Source of the DNA: Burkholderiales bacterium
Lineage (GTDB): Bacteria; Patescibacteriota; Minisyncoccia; Phycocordibacterales; UBA9973
Assembly (NCBI GenBank): GCA_023701005.1
Contig: JAMPXW010000003.1
Coordinates: 9,148-73,147 of the forward strand
Direction of reading: 5' to 3'
DNA length: 64,000 nt
The notes under the pieces are model-generated. The model worked only from the letters and a program-made list of their open reading frames with translations. It searched no databases and was not told the DNA's origin. Position 1 is the first letter of the stretch. Each line of letters begins with the position of its first letter. Of the stretch, positions 1-42,435 are shown in pieces. Made by a program: the position numbers and the translations under genes.

Positions 1-482
1 ATGGTGATGGAAGTTTTTCTGTAGACATGGGTTTGCCTATTTTTTCTCATACAGACTTTCCAAATAATTTTTTAGAACTAGAAAATTATTTATTTAATTT
101 TGTTTCCATGGGTAATCCCCACGCCGTGGCACAAATAAATAATTTAGAAGAAATAAATATAAAAACATTAGGCCCTAAAATAGAAAATAATAAAATTTTC
201 CCCAATAAAATAAATGTTGAATTTATAGAAAAAATTAATGATACTCATTTCAAAGTAAAAGTTTGGGAACGTGGATGCGGAGAGACACTTTCTTGTGGCA
301 CAGGAGCTTGTGCTATCTTTGCAATTTTAACCTCAAACCCTCCCGCTAGGCAAAACCTAGCGGAAACAAAAGAAATAACTTTAGAGTTTCCTGGAGGCAA
401 ATTATTCCTTTCAAAAAACGAAAAGGACCACGTTATTCTGCGTGGCCCCGCTACTTTCGTATTTAAAGGAGAAATAAATTAA
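1..482 (+). CDS. dapF: diaminopimelate epimerase, C-terminal part (5' end lies outside window)
   Basis: Reading frame open to window start; motifs GNPHAV and ERGCGETLSCGTGACA match DapF active-site region. Confidence 0.75.
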   Translation, partial: GDGSFSVDMGLPIFSHTDFPNNFLELENYLFNFVSMGNPHAVAQINNLEEINIKTLGPKIENNKIFPNKINVEFIEKINDTHFKVKVWERGCGETLSCGTGACAIFAILTSNPPARQNLAETKEITLEFPGGKLFLSKNEKDHVILRGPATFVFKGEIN

Positions 483-1561
483 ATAGTATTTCCTGTCTTA
501 ATAACATGATCAACTAATGTATGGGTATACCCCATTTCATTATCATACCATCCAAGCACTTTCACTAAGTTGCCACCCACAACTCTCGTCATTTCTAGGT
601 CTGCGATAGATGCATGAGATTCTCCAAGAATATCTGAAGAGACTAATGGCTCTTTTGTAACTGCAAACAATTTCTCCCATTTTTTATCTTTTGCAGCTTT
701 TTCTAAAATTTCATTCACTTCTTCTTTGGTAGTATTTTTCTTTGAAATAAAAGTAATATCCACTATCGATCCAGCTGGCACTGGCACTCTGATAGATATA
801 CCATCAAACATTCCTTTCAAATCTGGGAAGGCTTCTGTCACAGCTATGGCTGCACCAGTCGAACTCGGAACTATATTTTGTGCAGCAGCACGTCCTTCAC
901 GTAAATCCCCGCCTTGACTCGTCGGCGAGGCAGGTTTTTTGCTTGGCCCATCGACGAGGGCTTGTGAAGCAGTATATCCATGAACAGTATTCAAAATAGC
1001 TTTTTCTATTCCTAAAGATTCGTGCAATATAGAGATGAGTGGAGATGCGGCATTTGTAGTACAAGAAGCATTGGAAGTAATATCACAAGTTCCAAATTTA
1101 TCTTCATTTATTCCGAGTAATATTGTCTCTCCTTTCACACTATCATCTCCTCCCTTGGCAGGAGCAGATATGACAACTTTTTTAGCACCTTGATCAAGAT
1201 GAAATTTTGCTTTATCAAAAGAAGTAAATAATCCAGTAGACTCGACAACGACATCAATATCCAAATCTTTCCATGGAAGTTTTGTTGTATCTTTTTCCGA
1301 GAGAAATTTAATTTCTCGAGGTCCTTCCATAGCTTTAGCGGAAAAGGACGGGTAAATTAATAAATTTCCATTTTTAACTTCTACTTTATGTTCCCAATTT
1401 CTGTACACAGTATCATGACGCAACAAATAAGCGAGGCTTTCTATTGAACCAAGATCATTCACCGCAATTATTTCTAATTCTGGTCTCTCCCAAGCAATTT
1501 TTAAAAAAGCCCTACCTATTCTCCCAAAACCATTTATAGCTACTTTAGTTTTATTTTTCAT
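479..1561 (-). CDS. gap: glyceraldehyde-3-phosphate dehydrogenase
   Basis: INGFGRIGR Rossmann motif, SNASCTTN catalytic Cys motif, S-loop; carries an in-frame GC-rich insert (see repeat 906-938). Confidence 0.92.
   Translation of the reverse strand: MKNKTKVAINGFGRIGRAFLKIAWERPELEIIAVNDLGSIESLAYLLRHDTVYRNWEHKVEVKNGNLLIYPSFSAKAMEGPREIKFLSEKDTTKLPWKDLDIDVVVESTGLFTSFDKAKFHLDQGAKKVVISAPAKGGDDSVKGETILLGINEDKFGTCDITSNASCTTNAASPLISILHESLGIEKAILNTVHGYTASQALVDGPSKKPASPTSQGGDLREGRAAAQNIVPSSTGAAIAVTEAFPDLKGMFDGISIRVPVPAGSIVDITFISKKNTTKEEVNEILEKAAKDKKWEKLFAVTKEPLVSSDILGESHASIADLEMTRVVGGNLVKVLGWYDNEMGYTHTLVDHVIKTGNTI
906..938. repeat. GC-rich mini-element (family 1) inserted in-frame in gap; encodes PASPTSQGG
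   Basis: tccccgccttgactcgtcggcgaggcaggtttt; near-identical copy at 10203-10232; ~70% GC in an AT-rich genome. Confidence 0.6.
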
Positions 1562-8091: not shown

Positions 8092-8994
8092 ATGGTAAAT
8101 AGCAAAAAAAATCTTAATTTTATTTTTTGGGGAACACCAGATGTAGCAAAAGAAACATTAGATATTTTAAAAGAAAATGGCTATTTGCCTTCACTCATTG
8201 TGACTTCCACAGACAAACCACAAGGTAGAAAAATGATATTAACTCCCCCTCCTGTAAAAGTTTGGGCAATAGAAAACAATATTCCATATATTCAACCAGA
8301 AATTTTGTCTGGCAAAGATTTGCTTTTAGCGGGTGTCTCGCAGGCTGACGAGCCGAGAGGCAGCGCTCCGTTAGTAAACGGAAACAGCGACCCGATAAAA
8401 GTAGAATCCTTGCCAGATTTATCTATCGTGGTAGCTTATGGGAAAATTATTCCTGAAGAAATTTTAAATATGCCAAAATTTGGTTCTATAAATATACATT
8501 ATTCTCTGCTACCTAAGTATCGTGGAGCATCACCAGTAGAAAGTGCTATTTTAAATGGTGATAAAGACACAGGTGTCACAATACAAAAAATGGAATACAA
8601 AATGGATACTGGTCCCATTATTTCCACAGAAAAAACAGAAATATTGCCTACAGAAAAAGCTTCCGAATTAAGAAAAAGATTAATTAAAATAGGAGGAGAT
8701 CATTTAGTAAAAACTTTACCAAAGATTTTAGACAACACCATAACTCTAACTCCACAAAAGGATGAAGATGCTACTTATTGCAAAAAAATAAAAAAAGAAG
8801 ATGGCTTGATAGATCTTAATGATGATGCACAAAAAAACTATAATAAATTTAGAGCTTATTCTACATGGCCTCGTTCTTTCTTCTTTTTAGGAGAAAAAAG
8901 AATTATCATCACAGACGCAATACTAGAAAATAATCTTTTCACTATTAAAAAGATCATCCCCGAAAGTGGTAAAGAAACTAGTTACACTAAATAA
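8092..8994 (+). CDS. fmt: methionyl-tRNA formyltransferase
   Basis: formyl transferase N domain (HYSLLPKYRGASP) and C domain; contains 66-nt GC-rich in-frame insert. Confidence 0.88.
   Translation: MVNSKKNLNFIFWGTPDVAKETLDILKENGYLPSLIVTSTDKPQGRKMILTPPPVKVWAIENNIPYIQPEILSGKDLLLAGVSQADEPRGSAPLVNGNSDPIKVESLPDLSIVVAYGKIIPEEILNMPKFGSINIHYSLLPKYRGASPVESAILNGDKDTGVTIQKMEYKMDTGPIISTEKTEILPTEKASELRKRLIKIGGDHLVKTLPKILDNTITLTPQKDEDATYCKKIKKEDGLIDLNDDAQKNYNKFRAYSTWPRSFFFLGEKRIIITDAILENNLFTIKKIIPESGKETSYTK
8329..8394. repeat. GC-rich in-frame insert (family 2) in fmt linker; encodes AGVSQADEPRGSAPLVNGNSDP
   Basis: ~60% GC; shares 17-nt core ggctgacgagccgaga plus tcg with intergenic site 56065-56084; absent from E. 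coli-type Fmt linker between QP and VVVAYG. Confidence 0.55.
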
Positions 8995-10096: not shown

Positions 10097-12052
10097 CTAA
10101 TATTTAATACTATGCACTAAGGCCTTGAGAACAATATCGAATTCTATCGTAGCGACTCCGATAACTTTATCTCCTCCGCCATAATAAATATACAGCAGTT
10201 TATCCCCGCCTTGACTCGACGAGGCAGGTTTTACTATCATACCACAAGGAAAAACGACATTATTCACAATTCCTATTTTTTCATATTCCTCTTTTGGTTC
10301 AAATATAGGGTCAGAGCTTCTAGCGAGGACAATAGCCGGATCTTTCAAATCTAATAACAAAAATCCTGTTCTATAAGTATTATGACTTTTAGAAACCCCA
10401 TGATATAAAAGAAGCCAGCCGTATTTTGTCTTAAGTGGTGGAGCAGAGATACCTACTTTTGCACTATCCCAAGTGTTTATTCGGGGTCCTGCTATTCTAA
10501 TACATTTTTTTACCATCTCATGTTTAAAATCTAAAGTAGAAAGATAATCTCCACAAATTTCATTACCGACACGATGAATTATAAAATATCCAAGTGGAAA
10601 CTTTTCAGGAAATATACAAGCATCCTTATCATCTATCCCCTGCGGAGTGATAAGAAAAGGTTTTTCCCAATTCCATTTATTTGAAATAAAATCTTGTTCA
10701 GTAATAGATGATATGGCTACTCTAGGTGGAGAGATACTATCATAAGCTGTATAACATAAATAAATATTCTTCCCTATTTTTGTAAGCCTAGGATCTTCAC
10801 AGCCAGAATTAGAATTATTTACTTTTTTATTTTCAAAATCTTCTCTAGGTACATAAACGGGCATTTTTAATCTCTTATCTATTTTTGTACCATTTTTTGT
10901 CATAGCATAGCCCATAGTAGAAGTATTATCATTAGACATTGCCCTATATAAAATATGTATCTTCTTGTCCAACAAGATAGTGGCTGGATTAAAAGTAGCT
11001 AAAGATTCCCAAGCATTTTCTTTTTTAGGTGAAATAATTGGATTATTTTTAAATCTTTTCAAACTAAATTTCTCTTTATATTTAAAATGTATACTTTGAA
11101 TTAAGTCTTCGAGATTAACTTTCGCCAAACATACAGTAGCATCTGCTGCTCCATAATATAAATTTAAGGTTTTTTTATCGATGATAGCTCCAGTAGGAAA
11201 AACAATATTAGGAACATAGCCAGAAAGTTCATAATGTTCTAAAGGTACAAGTATCGGGCCTTCAGTCTTGCCAACAATCTTTCTAGGATTCTTCAAATCC
11301 AAAATTACTGTCTCAATACCAAATATTTTATCTAAATTACTAGAAGATGCAAAATAGTTCTGAATATGAGAATAAATAAATAGCCAACCATCTTTCGTCT
11401 TTATTGGAGGAGCACCCACTTCTATGTGGTCAGAAGGAAAACGCTTCAAATCGATAGCATAATCATCTACATTCTTTTCCCACTTATTCCAAAATTCTAC
11501 AGACCATAAATCTTCTATCCTATCTAACATCGCGAAGACAGTTTTTGATGGTGGAGAATCCGTATGATAAGAAAATACAACTACAATTTTCCCATTTATT
11601 CTCTCTGGGAAAAGGGCCATAGCTTTGGCATTAAAAGGTGTCACCAAATGTCTCTCTTTTATTTTGTTTAAATCATCTGAAACAGCTACCGCAACCTTGA
11701 TACCCTCTCTTGAAAAAGGATATTTTGAAAGTGCAGTATAAAAAGTATAAAATTTGCCTTCAAAAAATGTAACTCTAGGGTCTTCACAGCCAAATTTTTC
11801 CCAATCTTCTTTTGGTGTGATAAATGGTTTTCTATTTTTAAAGTTAATACCATCTTTACTCTCAGCGATCCCTATCACAGAATTTTGTCTAGGATTTTGC
11901 AAGACATCAACTGCAGATATCGCTCTGTAAAGTCCATATATTTTACCCTTATATTTAATTGGACAAAGATTAAAAGTAGCAAATTCTTCCCAGTAATGAT
12001 CTTCCTTTGGTATTAAGATTGGATTGTGTTCTGATCTTTTTACAACAAACAT
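10097..12052 (-). CDS. tandem-duplicated GH130-like glycosidase/phosphorylase (two beta-propeller repeats)
   Basis: two copies of NPIL..W(E)..ATFN(P)...YRA..., ...YYG(A/G)(A/G)D pattern (GH130/DUF377-like); carries family-1 GC-rich insert near C-terminus. Confidence 0.55.
   Translation of the reverse strand: MFVVKRSEHNPILIPKEDHYWEEFATFNLCPIKYKGKIYGLYRAISAVDVLQNPRQNSVIGIAESKDGINFKNRKPFITPKEDWEKFGCEDPRVTFFEGKFYTFYTALSKYPFSREGIKVAVAVSDDLNKIKERHLVTPFNAKAMALFPERINGKIVVVFSYHTDSPPSKTVFAMLDRIEDLWSVEFWNKWEKNVDDYAIDLKRFPSDHIEVGAPPIKTKDGWLFIYSHIQNYFASSSNLDKIFGIETVILDLKNPRKIVGKTEGPILVPLEHYELSGYVPNIVFPTGAIIDKKTLNLYYGAADATVCLAKVNLEDLIQSIHFKYKEKFSLKRFKNNPIISPKKENAWESLATFNPATILLDKKIHILYRAMSNDNTSTMGYAMTKNGTKIDKRLKMPVYVPREDFENKKVNNSNSGCEDPRLTKIGKNIYLCYTAYDSISPPRVAISSITEQDFISNKWNWEKPFLITPQGIDDKDACIFPEKFPLGYFIIHRVGNEICGDYLSTLDFKHEMVKKCIRIAGPRINTWDSAKVGISAPPLKTKYGWLLLYHGVSKSHNTYRTGFLLLDLKDPAIVLARSSDPIFEPKEEYEKIGIVNNVVFPCGMIVKPASSSQGGDKLLYIYYGGGDKVIGVATIEFDIVLKALVHSIKY
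10203..10232. repeat. GC-rich mini-element (family 1) copy, in-frame in GH130-like gene; encodes PASSSQGG
   Basis: tccccgccttgactcgacgaggcaggtttt, 30/33 identity to gap copy; the N-terminal repeat of the same protein lacks it. Confidence 0.6.
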
Positions 12053-12057
12053 AAATT

Positions 12058-13275
12058 TTATTCAAACTTAAATAATTTATTTTTTTCTAATTTTACAGAA
12101 TTATTTTTCACAATATCGTCCAATAAATCTGAAAGTTTAATAGAAGCGACACATACGACACTATCAGCCCCTCCATAATAAACAAAAAGTCTACCTTCTT
12201 TTACAACGGCACCACATGAATAAATAACACCTGATTTAAATCCTTCATTTTCATAATATTTATCTGGTTCTAAAATAGGACTTTGTGCACGATATAATAT
12301 TTTATTTGGATTTTTCAAATCTAAAATCATAGCACCTAGTTTATATCTATTTGGATCATTCTTATCCATAGCATGATACAAAACAAGCCATCCAAGATCA
12401 GTTTTTATTGGAGTAGGACCAACTCCTCTCACCCTATTGTCCCAAGAACTCTGCCAAGCTGGGGAAGAATTGTAATAACTTTTTATAAATTTTGAACCAT
12501 TAAACTCTGAAAAATCATCAATATAATCTATCAAAATTTCTGGAGAGATACTATGTAATATTGCAAATTTACCATTTATTTTTTCTGGAAATAAAACCCA
12601 GTTCTTATGAATTTCATTTGGAGGAGAAATCAAGATTGGTTTTTCCCAATTCCATTTTTTATTTTTAAAATCTTCTAATTTTATTGAAGTTAAGGCCATG
12701 CGCAAAGAACCCCATCCATCAAAAGCTGTATAAATAAGATAAACGGTATCGTCGATCAATGTAACTCGAGGATCTTCACAACCACCATTCCAACCACCAC
12801 CAGAAATATAATCTATAGGTTCAGTAGATTTTACAAATTTTACAGATTTTTGATAGATTGCATTTATTGGTCTTTCCATCAACCCATAACCATCCAAACT
12901 TGCTGCATATCCTAAGACAGACACATCATTGTCTCCAATAGCTCTGTATATAAGATGTATTTTTTGTCCATCAAAAAAAGCTGCTGGATTAAATGTGGCT
13001 TTTGATTCCCAAGAATACGGCCTTGGTTCTATTATTGGATTGTATTTAAATCTTTCGAGTTTTATTCCTTTTACAATCTTTGTTAATTTTTTAGAAATTT
13101 TTTTTATAACTTTCTTTTTTATTTTCTTTACAGGTTTTTTAACGATCTTTTTTGTTATTTTTTTTACTACTATTTTTTTACTTGTCGTTTTTTTTACAAC
13201 CTTTTTAATTGGTTTCTTCTTGGGGGCAACTTTTTTCTTTGGAATCTTCAATTTTTTCTTCAGTATCTTTACCAT
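12058..13275 (-). CDS. GH130-like glycosidase/phosphorylase with 70-aa Lys-rich (KKxx repeat) N-terminal tail
   Basis: YNPIIEPRPYSWESKATFNPAA...YYGGAD; N-terminus MVKILKKKLKIPKKKVAPKKKPIKK... Confidence 0.55.
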   Translation of the reverse strand: MVKILKKKLKIPKKKVAPKKKPIKKVVKKTTSKKIVVKKITKKIVKKPVKKIKKKVIKKISKKLTKIVKGIKLERFKYNPIIEPRPYSWESKATFNPAAFFDGQKIHLIYRAIGDNDVSVLGYAASLDGYGLMERPINAIYQKSVKFVKSTEPIDYISGGGWNGGCEDPRVTLIDDTVYLIYTAFDGWGSLRMALTSIKLEDFKNKKWNWEKPILISPPNEIHKNWVLFPEKINGKFAILHSISPEILIDYIDDFSEFNGSKFIKSYYNSSPAWQSSWDNRVRGVGPTPIKTDLGWLVLYHAMDKNDPNRYKLGAMILDLKNPNKILYRAQSPILEPDKYYENEGFKSGVIYSCGAVVKEGRLFVYYGGADSVVCVASIKLSDLLDDIVKNNSVKLEKNKLFKFE

Positions 13276-30102: not shown

Positions 30103-30342
30103 AAACCAAGGAAAATGGTAAAATGAATTTACCATAATTTATGGTGACAAAACCTAAACCAGAGCAATCTGGCATGGTTCAAATATCCCACGCGAATAGA
30201 AACGGCCACATAAGCCGACATTCATTCGCGTGGGTCCACAATCGAAAGGTTGTGGGATAGTTCCGAAAGGAGCTGTCGTCGTGTCTTGTGTGGCCATTTG
30301 TGTTAAACAAGCCGACTATTATCAACTAAAACCCACGCGAAA
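30103..30342 (+). other. GC-rich highly structured leader/ncRNA candidate with mutually exclusive pairings
   Basis: cccacgcgaa at 30187 and again at 30329 just before the ATG, complementary ttcgcgtggg at ~30231; hairpins atggtaaa/tttaccat/atggt, ccaga-gcaa-tctgg, cccacaa-tcgaaagg-ttgtggg. Confidence 0.45.
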
Positions 30343-33326: not shown

Positions 33327-35036
33327 ATGGAAAAAGAACAACAAAAATTAAACAAATACTTTATTTATTGCAGAAAGTCTACAGACAGCGAAGATAGACA
33401 AATACAATCATTATCAGATCAAATTAGGATATTACAAGAAATGGCAGAAAAGAAAGGTTTAATGATAGTAGAAACCTTACAAGAAGCTAAATCTGCTAAA
33501 GCACCCGGTAGGCCAGTATTCACGAAAATGATTGAGAGAATTAGTAAAGGTGAAGCCAATGGAATAATCACATGGAAATTAAATCGATTAGCGCGTAATC
33601 CTATAGATGGTGGAACTATCAGCTGGCTACTCCAACAAGGAGTGATTAAAGAAATCCTCACCCCGGAAAAAAGCCACTATCCAAATGATAATGCATTAAT
33701 CATGTCAGTAGAATTAGGTATCGCAAATCAATTCATTAGAGACTTAAGTAGTGATGCTAAGCGTGGTATAAAAACAAGAGCAACACAAAAAGGTTACCCA
33801 AATGGAGTTGCTCCTATAGGATACTTAAATGATCTTGTGAAAGCCAAAGGAGATCGTGGCTGGAAAGTAGACGAAGAAAGATTTCCAATAATAAAACAAA
33901 TACTAAAAATGTTTGCCACGGGTAAATACTCAGTGAGACAAATGACTAGTATTGCTAACGAAGAAATGGGATTGAGAACCTTTATAAGGAAAAAACAAGG
34001 TGGAAAGAAAATCGTTGTATCTTACATGGATGTGATATTAAAAAATCCAGTATATGCCGGCTTCTTCTTTCTCAATACAGATAATAGTAGGCATGAAGTA
34101 AACAAAGAAATTCCAAGAATGATCTCTGAAGAAACATATTGGAAAATACAAAAAATTCTTGGAAACAGAGGACGCCCTAGGCCTCACAAAAATATAAAAG
34201 CTTTCGCTTATACAGGTCTCACCAAATGCGGTGGCTGTGGTGGCTCTGTGACGGCTGAAGAAAAATACCAATTAATATGTTCCAGTTGTAAGCATAAATT
34301 CGCCTATGCAAGTAAAAACGAATGCCCCAAATGCAAAACAAAGATAAAAGACATGGAAGATCCTACTTACTTACACTATACCTACTATCACTGCACAAAA
34401 AAGAAAAGAGAACTAAAATGCAAAGAAAGATCAGTGGTGGATACAAAAATCGATGAGACGCTGGCAGACTACTATAAAAAAAACTTAAAAATATCAGCCG
34501 ACTTGTCTAAGTGGTGCATAGAAAATCTACGAGTAATTGAGAAAGAAGAAAAGCAAAATGATTACGAGATAAAAGCGTCTTTACAGAAAACCCTGACATC
34601 AAAAGAAAAAGAGCTTTCAGAACTAGCACTGATGCGCGCCAGAGGGCTTTTGGACGATGAAAGCTTCATTACAGCACAAAATACAATAAAGGAAGATATT
34701 AGCGCCCTTAAGCGAAAATTGAGCGAATTTGAGCATCTTGATCCAGAAAAAGCAGAAAGGATTTACCAAGCATTCGACCTATCGCAAGGCATAGACGAAA
34801 TTATCAGAAATGGCACGCCTGAAGAGAAAAAATCAGTATTATTGGAAATTGGTTCGAACCTAACTCTAAAAGACAAAACAATCAATGTTTATAACAGCGA
34901 ATTGTATTCTGCAATAATAAATGGACTACATTTAGCAAAGTCTGAAATTGAGTGGTTCGAACCTGAAAATTATCAAGCAGAACAAGAACAAAACGCCTCT
35001 TTCGAGGCGCTTCGTTCAACCATGCTCCGGGGGTAG
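33327..35036 (+). CDS. large serine recombinase (integrase type: resolvase catalytic domain + recombinase domain + zinc ribbon + coiled coil)
   Basis: YCRKSTDSEDRQ..SLSDQ catalytic Ser region, LNRLAR, CGGCGGS...CSSCKH...CPKCKT zinc ribbon; start set at MEKEQQ (ORF track start 33219 overlaps a conserved hairpin); stop overlaps tRNA-Asn 3' end. Confidence 0.8.
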   Translation: MEKEQQKLNKYFIYCRKSTDSEDRQIQSLSDQIRILQEMAEKKGLMIVETLQEAKSAKAPGRPVFTKMIERISKGEANGIITWKLNRLARNPIDGGTISWLLQQGVIKEILTPEKSHYPNDNALIMSVELGIANQFIRDLSSDAKRGIKTRATQKGYPNGVAPIGYLNDLVKAKGDRGWKVDEERFPIIKQILKMFATGKYSVRQMTSIANEEMGLRTFIRKKQGGKKIVVSYMDVILKNPVYAGFFFLNTDNSRHEVNKEIPRMISEETYWKIQKILGNRGRPRPHKNIKAFAYTGLTKCGGCGGSVTAEEKYQLICSSCKHKFAYASKNECPKCKTKIKDMEDPTYLHYTYYHCTKKKRELKCKERSVVDTKIDETLADYYKKNLKISADLSKWCIENLRVIEKEEKQNDYEIKASLQKTLTSKEKELSELALMRARGLLDDESFITAQNTIKEDISALKRKLSEFEHLDPEKAERIYQAFDLSQGIDEIIRNGTPEEKKSVLLEIGSNLTLKDKTINVYNSELYSAIINGLHLAKSEIEWFEPENYQAEQEQNASFEALRSTMLRG

Positions 35037-35062
35037 GGATCGAACCTACGACCAATCGCTTA

Positions 35063-35631
35063 CACTTTATCTCCTATTACTAGAAGTGTGGACTATATCA
35101 TCTCCATGTTCATAAAATTTATGAATTTAGAAGCAAGGCGCTTCGCGCTCTAACATAAATTAGAGAGCTACTCCATAAATGGATAGTCTCTACACCTTCC
35201 TCAATTTAAAATTGAGGCTTGGCTCGGGATTACCCCATAAGGGCTTCCCCGAATTCACCTTGTTTTTCAACCTAAGTTTTCTTAGGAAGCTGCGTAATAC
35301 CGTCATGTATTTCCATATGACAATTTGCACACAAGAGAACACATTTATCAATTTCTTTTTTGATACGTTCCCATGACCTAGTTAACCCCCTAGAAGAAAG
35401 ATCAAAATCTTTTTCTTTTGGATTTAAGTGATGAAAACTTAATGATCTCTGGCATTTATTATAGCCACACACAATACACTTACCGCCTTTATAGTCTCTA
35501 GCCATTTCACGAAGCTTTTTTCTTCTTCTTGTAACAGCCATTACCATATATTCTCTACGGTCGGCATATGTTCGTTTTTCTACTCGTTTCTTTTTGGTAT
35601 ACACAAGTAGATTATACCACAAACATCCGAC
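35063..35631 (-). mobile_element. group I intron within tRNA anticodon loop
   Basis: 5' exon ends in U, intron ends in G; P7 pairing agacta...tagtc and P8-like hairpin tccatttatgga downstream of ORF. Confidence 0.65.
35272..35622 (-). CDS. HNH homing endonuclease encoded in the tRNA intron
   Basis: CIVCGYNKCQRSLSFHHLNPKEKD...LLCANCHMEIH HNH motif; non-ATG (TTG) start in track. Confidence 0.7.
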   Translation of the reverse strand: MWYNLLVYTKKKRVEKRTYADRREYMVMAVTRRRKKLREMARDYKGGKCIVCGYNKCQRSLSFHHLNPKEKDFDLSSRGLTRSWERIKKEIDKCVLLCANCHMEIHDGITQLPKKT

Positions 35632-35832
35632 ACAGGCGACCGCTCTACCGCTGAGCTACCCCGGAATATTTTATTTTCAATTCTTCTTTTAAATACCATA
35701 ATTTCCACCAAACTATCTACCTATAAGTAGATAAGCCCCGGAATATTATTCAATTAAAAGAACTTTTTATATCTTAACAGAAAATAACTAAAAAACAAGA
35801 TGGCTTTTCGTTTTAGTGTATAATTAAATACA

Positions 35833-42104: not shown

Positions 42105-42435
42105 AAGTCTGGTAAGATAATACCGGTCCTGTATTGAATAGTTGCGCTCCGGCCTCGGCTGGAGTGAGGAAAGTCCGAACACATAGTCTCGGCTTAGGCC
42201 TTAGACAAGCGTAGTGGGTAACGCCCATCGGGAGCAATCCCAGAGTTGAGAACAGTGACGAACCGATTTAGTTCGGGTGAAACGGCAAAATACTTACGTG
42301 TGTGCAAGATCGTGTTCTGCGAAGCTTCATGCGAAGCAGAAAGAATCGCTTGAGCCCGAGCGTAAGCGAGGGCCTAGACAAATAACTATTGCCTTTATTG
42401 GTACAGAATTCGGCTTATAGATACAAGGCTCACAT
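42105..42435 (+). ncRNA. rnpB: RNase P RNA, bacterial type A
   Basis: GAGGAAAGUCCGAAC (P4 5' strand), GGGUAACGCC, GGGUGAAACGG, GCUUGAGCC, ACAGAAUUCGGCUUA (P4 3' strand) in canonical order; ends approximate (+/-20 nt). Confidence 0.85.

Follow-up and report, generated by a model that had tools for sequence, protein, structure and literature searches.

How does a block of 24 nucleotides (nt), rich in G+C, come to lie in frame within a conserved enzyme gene of an AT-rich bacterial genome, when the other copies of the same protein domain do without it? The question is raised by positions 10205–10228, read on the minus strand, of the stretch of 64,000 nt analyzed here (contig JAMPXW010000003.1 of assembly GCA_023701005.1, positions 9,148 to 73,147), which is referred to as the window. 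The block (CCTGCCTCGTCGAGTCAAGGCGGG) is a mini-hairpin element of a group named here family 1, and the plus strand of 10203–10232 reads atCCCCGCCTTGACTCGACGAGGCAGGtttt. Its host gene, at 10097–12052 on the minus strand, encodes a protein of 651 amino acids with two GH130 (beta-1,2-mannoside phosphorylase-like) domains. The element is read as PASSSQGG, residues P609–G616, between Lys608 (AAA, 10229–10231, minus strand) and Asp617 (GAT, 10202–10204, minus strand). It is almost certainly the insertion of a member of a dispersed repeat family, and the family itself is probably selfish DNA, mobile now or in the past and translated where it stands.

Filled and empty sites in the GH130 gene

The comparison of the filled site with its empty counterparts begins within the window. 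The assignment of the host as a GH130-like protein, made in an earlier note on this DNA, is borne out by Pfam PF04041, found on the identical Logan protein, and by the PDB matches 9fj8 and 7fip. The earlier note also held that the eight residues are an addition to the C-terminal repeat, and the sequence comparison agrees. They are missing from the N-terminal domain (…AIIDKKTLNLYYGAAD) and from the single-domain GH130 paralogue at 12058–13275 on the minus strand (…AVVKEGRLFVYYGGAD; likewise PF04041), which serves as an internal control. Among the best 120 GH130 orthologues, 110 lack the insert at the C-domain site, and most of the 120 are 643 amino acids long, that is, 651 minus 8. The alignment of the host with 9fj8 has an eight-residue gap at the insert, between …CGNAVK and DDTIYVYYGGAD.

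With the closest orthologue (P0001), the identity is 94% for the protein and 91.9% for the DNA over 1,932 nt, and the gene order is retained: the GH130 paralogue, the GH130 host gene, and then the gene of an S30AE-family ribosome-associated protein. The 24 nt are the sole gap in the DNA alignment of the two genes. The empty site of the nearest orthologue (locus L121) reads ATA GTA AAA|GAT AAG CTG, and the filled site of the window reads ATA GTA AAA[CCTGCC…GGCGGG]GAT AAA CTG. No bases are gained by duplication or lost at the junctions. Since AAA|GAT is set against AAA[24 nt]GAT, this is a clean 24-nt insertion without target-site duplication. The insertion appears to be recent, as it would postdate the split from a relative with 92% DNA identity. 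The empty orthologous site, the orthologues without the insert, and the gap against the PDB structures together uphold the claim that a repeated GC-rich element was inserted here in frame.

The structure of the host protein was modelled with AlphaFold on the basis of 96 orthologues, with a mean predicted local distance difference test (pLDDT) value of 93.5. The sole segment with pLDDT below 50 is 612–616, in the loop linking strands 600–609 and 618–626; the counterpart hairpin of the N-domain is modelled with a tight two-residue turn. The insert is thus predicted to be a disordered loop that joins two strands of the propeller, which is itself modelled with confidence.

A chance likeness had been named as a possible objection. 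The G+C content of the window is 28–40% across 2-kb bins, and just 62 frames of 24 nt contain at least 17 G+C. These frames merge into 15 islands, two of which are the family-1 copies at 10204–10228 and 908–934. In 100 dinucleotide shuffles, no match to the 24-nt pattern with up to three mismatches was obtained. A chance origin is excluded because of this result and the rarity of GC-rich frames. The element at 10205–10228 is predicted to fold into a hairpin of -12.2 kcal/mol.

The second copy in the GAPDH gene

The other copy in the window lies in gap (479–1561, minus strand), the gene of a type I GAPDH of 360 amino acids. It occupies 908–934 on the minus strand and is 27 nt long (CCTGCCTCGCCGACGAGTCAAGGCGGG). 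Its translation, PASPTSQGG, falls in the S-loop region, and its flanks are again AAA and GAT. The existence of this copy and its likeness to the GH130 copy were described correctly in the earlier note. The count given there, 30 of 33 matching positions, is off by one: 29 of 30 aligned bases are the same, with one 3-nt indel in addition. When the AAA…GAT flanks are counted, the two copies have a 12-nt prefix and a 17-nt suffix in common.

The site in gap is also found empty. Among the best 120 gap orthologues, 112 are without the insert. An example is the orthologue in L127 (90% protein identity), which reads AAG AAA|GAT TTA; the GAPDH of P0122 (87% identity) is likewise empty, and the alignment with PDB 1hdg shows a gap at the insert, between …LPHK and DLRRARAA.

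Two further observations concern the same gene. At 1318–1359 on the minus strand, gap contains a second insert of about 10 amino acids, with YPSFSAKAME in place of DGKK. This insert is missing from most GAPDH orthologues and is common to P0122, the DNA of which shows a clearer hairpin there (TCCTTCGCTGAAGCTACGGAAGGA). In the window, 1323–1352 reads CCTTCC…GGACGGG on the plus strand, and the insert may be a decayed hairpin element of another family. The identical GAPDH is recorded at NCBI as 'MAG: hypothetical protein NDI62_02935 [Burkholderiales bacterium]'. The orthologues of the window GAPDH and GH130 proteins are those of Paceibacterota and Nomurabacteria, with 85–94% identity, and the Burkholderiales label of the contig is probably the result of mis-binning or mislabelling. 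The inserts may explain why the GAPDH of the window remained unnamed.

Architecture of the hairpin

Family 1 belongs to a superfamily defined by the termini CCTGCC…GGCGGG. Its layout is CCTGCC-TCG(C)-loop-(G)CGA-GTCAA-GGCGGG, usually 24, 27, or 30 nt in length, and it folds as a nested hairpin. The outer stem, CCTGCC/GGCGGG, is fixed and includes a T·G position; therefore, the written strand folds better than its complement, in which U·G becomes C·A at that place. The inner stem, CTCG(C)/(G)CGAG, encloses a variable loop (CTGAC is frequent in 30-mers and CCNA in 27-mers, and 24-mers have nearly none) and is followed on the 3′ side by a bulge, (A)GTCA(A).

Relatives of family 1 keep the ends, the loop, and the bulge. 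The inner stem changes in sequence while its pairing is kept, as in CGC/GCG, GAACG/CGTTC, CGAGA/TCTCG, and TTG/CAA. Examples of such variants are CCTGCC-C-GAACG-GCTGACGG-CGTTC-AGTCG-GGCGGG in L129, CCTGCC-CGAGA-TGA-TCTCG-TTCA-GGCGGG in L126, and a metagenome variant in which TTG/CAA replaces TCG/CGA. With the relatives included, the elements range from 18 to 39 nt, mostly 24–30 nt. The minimal 18-nt form, found in L122 and L124, is CCTGCCCGCGCAGGCGGG and encodes PARAGG. Pairs of CCTGCC…GGCGGG no more than 36 nt apart occur 151 times in 948 kb of loci, compared with 0–15 times for the scrambled-end controls (a 10- to 75-fold excess). A 15-nt relative (CCTGCCTCGGGCGGG) was observed in L030, in two copies within one locus, both with the left flank ggccag. 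The 15-nt and 18-nt relatives suggest a minimal core which consists of the outer stem alone.

Copies may directly adjoin each other in tandem (L013, L099, L154, L212) or be nested in other GC-rich repeats (L073, L029, L058, L016). In the latter four loci and in L003/L007, the repeat that encloses the family-1 copies is a different GC-rich one, the ends of which resemble CCCGCTTCG…CGAGGCGAG, and in recG of two Moranbacteria species the composite insert is kept at the same site. Such nested composites suggest several interacting families of mini-elements.

Another GC-rich island of the window, GCGGGTGTCTCGCAGGCTGACGAGCCGAGAGGCAGCGCTCCG, lies at 8329–8372 on the plus strand inside fmt and encodes GVSQADEPRGSAP, part of a linker that varies in methionyl-tRNA formyltransferase. 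The folding energy of the island is -23.4 kcal/mol (z = -1.75), and the L122 orthologue differs in sequence there. The island was considered as a further copy of the family and rejected, as it lies in a variable region and shows no clear CCTGCC…GGCGGG membership. It may represent another family of GC-rich elements.

Size and host range of the family

The wider search bears out the repeated nature of the element proposed in the earlier note: the same bounded element, with unrelated flanks, occurs in the genomes of at least 119 species and in no fewer than 120 metagenome contigs. The genome scan covered one genome per species for 185,579 species with the pattern CCTGCCTCG-N0-9-GAGTCAAGGCGGG, and the metagenome scan used the looser pattern CCTGCC-N6-24-AGTCAAGGCGGG. 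The totals of both scans are lower bounds, all counts derived from them are counts among the matches listed, and exact-match scans of this kind detect well-conserved copies only. The strict pattern was found in at least 123 copies in the genomes, including the window's own Logan contig (L001), where about 0.7 matches would be expected by chance at uniform base composition. The 123 listed copies are mostly of 24 nt (n = 59), 30 nt (n = 44), and 27 nt (n = 13), with a few of 23, 26, 28, 29, and 31 nt. The similarity among them ends sharply at CCTGCC… and …GGCGGG, and the median G+C content of the genome loci is 39%. The metagenome contigs contributed at least 125 matches, and 67 of those listed fit the strict pattern.

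Most of the matches belong to Patescibacteria; among those listed, the labels include Saccharibacteria, Paceibacterota, and Nomura-, Moran-, Levyi-, Curtiss-, Davies-, Gottesman-, Giovannoni-, Wildermuth-, Kaiser-, Harrison-, Ryan-, Specht-, Kuenen-, Falkow-, Buchanan-, and Howlettbacteria. The other labels are WOR-3, Omnitrophota, Bacteroidota, and 'Gammaproteobacteria'; the taxon labels of metagenome-assembled genomes (MAGs) are given as deposited and can be wrong. An example outside Patescibacteria is L079, where a copy lies inside the rpoC open reading frame (ORF) of a WOR-3/FCB-type bacterium, on one contig of a MAG with at least six copies. The best named relatives of its RpoC are those of Zixibacteria, GN15, KSB1, Latescibacteria, and Gemmatimonadota, and not of Patescibacteria. 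Judged by this protein, the cross-phylum distribution is real for L079.

No match to family 1 was present in the scanned IMG/VR viral contigs, and a BLAST search with the 30-mer consensus found none either among 72,556 plasmids and 50,697 phages. The full-text literature search, which included exact DNA and peptide strings and had most papers of subscription journals outside its reach, returned no description of the element. The family-1 elements are apparently undescribed, and there may be an earlier description.

Copies inside genes and their translation

Stop-free spans of at least 120 amino acids were taken as a proxy for genes. Such spans contain 95 of the 122 listed genome copies (about 78%; L001 excluded). 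The length of all 95 is a multiple of 3, and the seven genome copies with other lengths all lie outside the spans (Fisher p = 1.3e-5). The copies are read in different frames: 57 in frame S0 (PASPSQGG), 17 in A2 (RLDSARQ), 12 in S1 (LPRRVKAG), 5 in A0 (PALTRRGR), and 4 in S2 (CLAESRR). Frame A1, which has a TGA and yields no peptide, is used by none. Frame A1 is again unused in the listed metagenome set, in which 41 of the 45 in-ORF copies are multiples of 3. The orientation of the element follows the sense strand of the host ORF in 73 of the listed genome copies and opposes it in 22.

The hosts are genes of central functions. In the Pfam scan of 20 host ORFs, 19 matched conserved housekeeping families, and L100 had no match. 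Among these families are RecG, ComM-type Mg-chelatase, ATP synthase a, BipA, the Val-, Ile-, Ala-, Pro-, and Phe-tRNA synthetases, MurC, MurI, TsaD, pseudouridine synthase, Pol I 5′-3′ exonuclease, UvrB, topoisomerase I, RpoC, trigger factor, and ribosomal protein S2.

The in-frame lengths and the unused stop frame are a signature of translation, and not of removal. The pattern fits DNA that would land anywhere and survive only where the encoded peptide is harmless, and it argues against splicing, bypassing, or a selected peptide. In two cases (L003/L007 in recG, and L048/L083), the insertion is common to two species with the same site and flanks; temporary vertical inheritance of the copies is therefore possible.

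Repeated use of the same sites

The boundary between Lys and Asp codons, K|D, is occupied by different elements in different orthologues. At the C-domain site of GH130, other orthologues carry PARAGG, PARRGG, PARTGG, PAGAGR, SAHSGS, or PARPHDSSGAGG. The equivalent boundary of the N-domain is filled with LARRGG, NARAGG, SARGGG, FIRSDK, STRPGDHSDG, PARDESRSGG, or PARNAFSIVDAGG. The variants at the GAPDH site are PASPTSQGG, PASPSSQGG, PARPGSAGG, PARTADGVQSGG, and PARPGDHSGG. In DNA, the GH130 variants prove to be CCTGCC…GGCGGG elements with lengths of 18, 30, and 39 nt, some of them decayed (AATGCC…GGCGGA), and they always lie between AAA and GAT or GAC (L122, L124, L125, L126). A fourth site, AAA|GGA, is found in L130. 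In the neighbour-joining tree of the GH130 orthologues, the filled alleles are scattered among the empty ones.

In-frame AAAGAT occurs about 4 to 8 times per gene, and just one or two of these sites are ever occupied. AAA|GAT alone does not define the target, because most in-frame AAAGAT stay unoccupied. Across the whole family, the flanks differ from AAA|GA.

Proposed origin of the elements

In the proposed explanation, the segment is one copy of a GC-rich mini-hairpin, defined by its structure, and was inserted between two adjacent nucleotides, AAA|GAT, without target-site duplication. The landing place in GH130 is the turn of the last beta-hairpin in the C-terminal domain. The element would be selfish, non-autonomous DNA, and an enzyme acting in trans would recognize its folded strand and copy or move it. 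Horizontal transfer would have spread it among Patescibacteria and into at least one other lineage. The element would not be taken out of the mRNA and would instead be translated along with the host gene. The surviving copies would then be those which selection tolerates, with a length divisible by 3, a stop-free frame, and a position in a flexible surface loop; the commonest frame would yield the Pro/Ala/Ser/Gly-rich PAS…SQGG. A trans-mobilized selfish element is preferred because of the precise insertion, the conserved fold with compensatory stems, the multi-copy spread across lineages, the growth by tandem and nested copies, the presence and absence of the element, and its translation.

To our knowledge, only the HUH/Y1 enzymes, such as RAYT with REP elements and TnpA of IS200/IS605, have a chemistry by which small hairpins are naturally inserted and excised precisely and free of target duplication. 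An HUH/Y1 single-strand transposase of the REP/RAYT or IS200/IS605 kind is a possible, rather doubtful, candidate for the mobilizing enzyme. This assignment is held loosely because there is no fixed target oligonucleotide, no replication-strand bias, and no linked gene. There is a substantial chance that the mobilization mechanism is new. Somewhat short of even chances, the family may form a new class of ultra-small (18–39 nt), structure-defined mobile DNA, with precise, duplication-free insertion and excision, a preference for or re-use of sites like AAA|GA in DNA that encodes loops, cross-phylum spread, and an enzyme or mechanism new to the known element types; its insertions would seed new surface loops of essential proteins in ultra-small bacteria.

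Several observations weigh against mobile selfish DNA. When 1,522 ORFs from the 119 loci (about 8 kb each) were compared all against all, no transposase or recurrent non-housekeeping cluster was found near the copies; such clustering of linked genes covers the loci only and is a weak test for elements mobilized in trans. No conserved target motif was found, although position -1 is a purine in 99 of 119 copies and position +1 a pyrimidine in 96 of 119, which is partly due to the tandem and nested contexts. The non-coding copies do not track the local GC skew (12 of 27; a weak test). Since the orientation follows the host gene and there is no link with GC skew, the replication-strand bias typical of IS200/IS605 receives no support. 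The identity of copies across phyla is partly a product of the exact-match search, and in the metagenome set alone the multiple-of-3 contrast is not significant (p = 0.14). We infer both mobility and selfishness, the former from the comparison of presence and absence only. Furthermore, simple random transposition does not account for why one codon boundary, AAA|GAT, is used again and again. This re-use may be due to a weak preference for the target together with strong selection for loops that tolerate an insert, to the overwriting of old copies by new ones, or to a single old insertion that was precisely lost many times.

The site re-use is also the ground on which copying by recombination or template switching has to be weighed. 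A hairpin that is resident or degenerate, or a favourable AAA|GA site, would then be overwritten from another copy by gene conversion, replication template switching, or the transfer of allele segments between related strains, resulting in concerted evolution and site re-use without any transposition. Such copying would account for the differing CCTGCC…GGCGGG variants at the same boundary in scattered orthologues (GH130 N-domain and C-domain, GAPDH S-loop) and for the degenerate copies at the same sites (AATGCC…GGCGGA; SAHSGS; FIRSDK). It is also in keeping with the lack of any target duplication, target motif, or linked transposase among the findings, and the GC clusters of yeast mitochondria are thought to use more than cut-and-paste (PMC4478555). 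However, termini of 6 nt do not suffice for RecA-type recombination, most of the approximately 250 listed copies lie in unrelated genes and flanks and so require insertion de novo, and the cross-phylum identity still demands a dedicated spreading mechanism. Copying of this kind in place of transposition is improbable. The strong conservation seen in the stem, at the T·G position, and in the AGTCA bulge could instead reflect an RNA or DNA element useful to the host (an mRNA stabilizer, a site of RNase action or pausing, a binding site for a protein, or a signal for recombination) that is selected and not just tolerated; the better folding of the written strand and the sense orientation of 77% of the ORF copies point the same way. 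Yet 22 of the 95 ORF copies are antisense and 27 copies lie outside long ORFs, filled and empty orthologues coexist at 92% DNA identity, the host genes are functionally unrelated, there is no Rfam match, and decayed copies exist, which makes a host function very unlikely.

The encoded peptide PAS…SQGG may itself be regarded as the selected unit, serving as a portable flexible loop or a modification site, since frame S0 dominates (57 of 95) and its Pro/Ala/Ser/Gly-rich peptide lies in surface loops. A bias towards S0 is, however, expected from tolerance alone. The four other frames give unrelated peptides, the same DNA occurs in non-coding copies, and conservation is at the nucleotide level, synonymous positions included, so that selection for the peptide is highly improbable. 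It is scarcely credible that the segment is a sequencing or assembly artefact, or that it is removed before translation as a mini-intron or by translational bypass. Nothing specific speaks for an artefact: short GC-rich hairpins can break assemblies, and copies stand at contig ends in L019 and L113. Against it, the filled allele is also present in a separate Logan assembly of run SRR23907158 (possibly the window's own source sample), and the MAGs and metagenomes in which the family is found were deposited with many project and accession prefixes that are unrelated. A sequencing adaptor was rejected, as the lengths vary, the copies are in frame, and many projects are involved. The in-frame copies with lengths in multiples of 3 (95 of 95 within ORFs) and the stop frame that is never used stand against both artefact and removal, and eight residues are too few for an intein. 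The Rfam gathering scan of the window and the E-value scan of 10150–10290 gave nothing relevant to the element, with McaS as the best match (E = 0.58).

One more identity was set aside. The 3′ part of the element with its flank, GCGGGGATAAAC, resembles the end of a type I-E CRISPR repeat; the ATAAAC part is host flank and is missing from the gap copy. The copies are single or directly abutting, with no unique spacers of about 30 nt as in a CRISPR repeat array.

Relation to known repeats

The closest parallel in coding sequence is the Rickettsia palindromic elements (RPEs), with 44 insertions in R. conorii (PMC10969869). Like family 1, RPEs are palindromic repeats that stand in frame in unrelated conserved genes and are translated as an extra peptide in tolerated places (PMC10969869). 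They differ in their length of about 100–150 bp, their restriction to Rickettsia, and their unrelated sequence, whereas family 1 is 18–39 nt long, GC-rich in AT-rich genomes, present in many Patescibacteria classes and at least one other lineage, and found in tandem and nested forms.

A likeness in form is offered by mitochondrial GC clusters and hairpin elements, namely yeast GC42/M-class clusters, byps, sponge RHE, and the double-hairpin elements of Allomyces (PMC4478555; PMC2800124). These are also short GC-rich hairpin repeats of AT-rich genomes, with conserved stems and variable loops, which occur singly or in tandem, merge, nest, and have no known dedicated enzyme (PMC4478555; PMC2800124). 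In contrast to family 1, the mitochondrial clusters are organellar, mostly intergenic, and 30–60 nt or longer; yeast GC42 has an AG target duplication, and byps, which the ribosome bypasses, may have lengths other than multiples of 3. Family 1 is bacterial, 78% intragenic among the listed copies, free of target duplication, and translated.

Repetitive extragenic palindromic (REP) sequences are imperfect GC-rich palindromes of 20–40 nt, present in many copies, which are recognized as folded single strands, are sometimes clustered, and leave no target duplication. Family 1 resembles them as a nested GC-rich hairpin of 24–30 nt that is spread over at least 119 genomes, some of which have several copies. 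REPs are found outside genes, and one of their ends is marked by the tetranucleotide GTAG or CGTC (PMC3733652). Family 1 differs in being mainly intragenic (95 of 122 listed) and in its ends, CCTG…/…CGGG, without a tetranucleotide tag; no RAYT adjoining a family-1 copy was found in the 119 loci of about 8 kb each. MITEs, the miniature inverted-repeat transposable elements, are at least 50 bp long, with target duplications and ends derived from a parent insertion sequence, and palindrome-associated transposable elements (PATEs) keep both IS200/IS605 ends and a fixed target of 4–5 nt. Similarly to family 1, both are short, non-autonomous, multi-copy elements with inverted-repeat ends and possible in-frame fusion with host ORFs. 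Family 1 is distinguished from MITEs by its 18–39 nt, by the lack of target duplication at the GH130 and gap sites, and by the absence of a longer parent in 948 kb. In these loci, the search for a longer autonomous element with the same two ends returned only variants, nested copies, and solo ends. Family 1 is distinguished from PATEs by the lack of both IS200/IS605 ends, of a fixed 4–5-mer in the left flank, and of a GC-skew bias in the non-coding copies, the skew comparison being the weak one given above.

If confirmed, the family would be among the smallest mobile or repeated elements known and the first shown to pepper essential Patescibacteria genes, such as those of GAPDH, RpoC, tRNA synthetases, and ribosomal protein S2, with in-frame inserts. 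It would provide a DNA-level source of lineage-specific loop insertions in essential proteins and would mark the horizontal flow of DNA between ultra-small bacteria and other phyla. In practice, such elements would be a cause of contig breaks and of 'hypothetical protein' calls, as for the GAPDH of the window. They would also offer a tractable system for studying how a 24-nt hairpin gets copied, with hundreds of filled and empty pairs expected in public metagenomes.

Other RNA features of the window

Three further features were observed. At 35030–35664 on the minus strand, a group I intron of approximately 590 nt, with an Rfam RF00028 match at 35070–35359, interrupts the anticodon loop of a tRNA, probably tRNA-His (GUG). 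The split tRNA, for which there was no ARAGORN call, has the acceptor stem UCCGGGG/CCCCGGA, the D arm GCTCAGCGGTAGAGC, and the anticodon stem GTCGC/GCGAT. The intron contains an ORF with an HNH-like motif (…CVCGYNKCQ…HHLNP…CANCHMEIHDG). On the plus strand, a LOOT RNA (RF03000, 71.3 bits) lies at 30151–30277, and a bacterial RNase P class A RNA lies at 42126–42433, with 109.9 bits, near the gathering score of 100.

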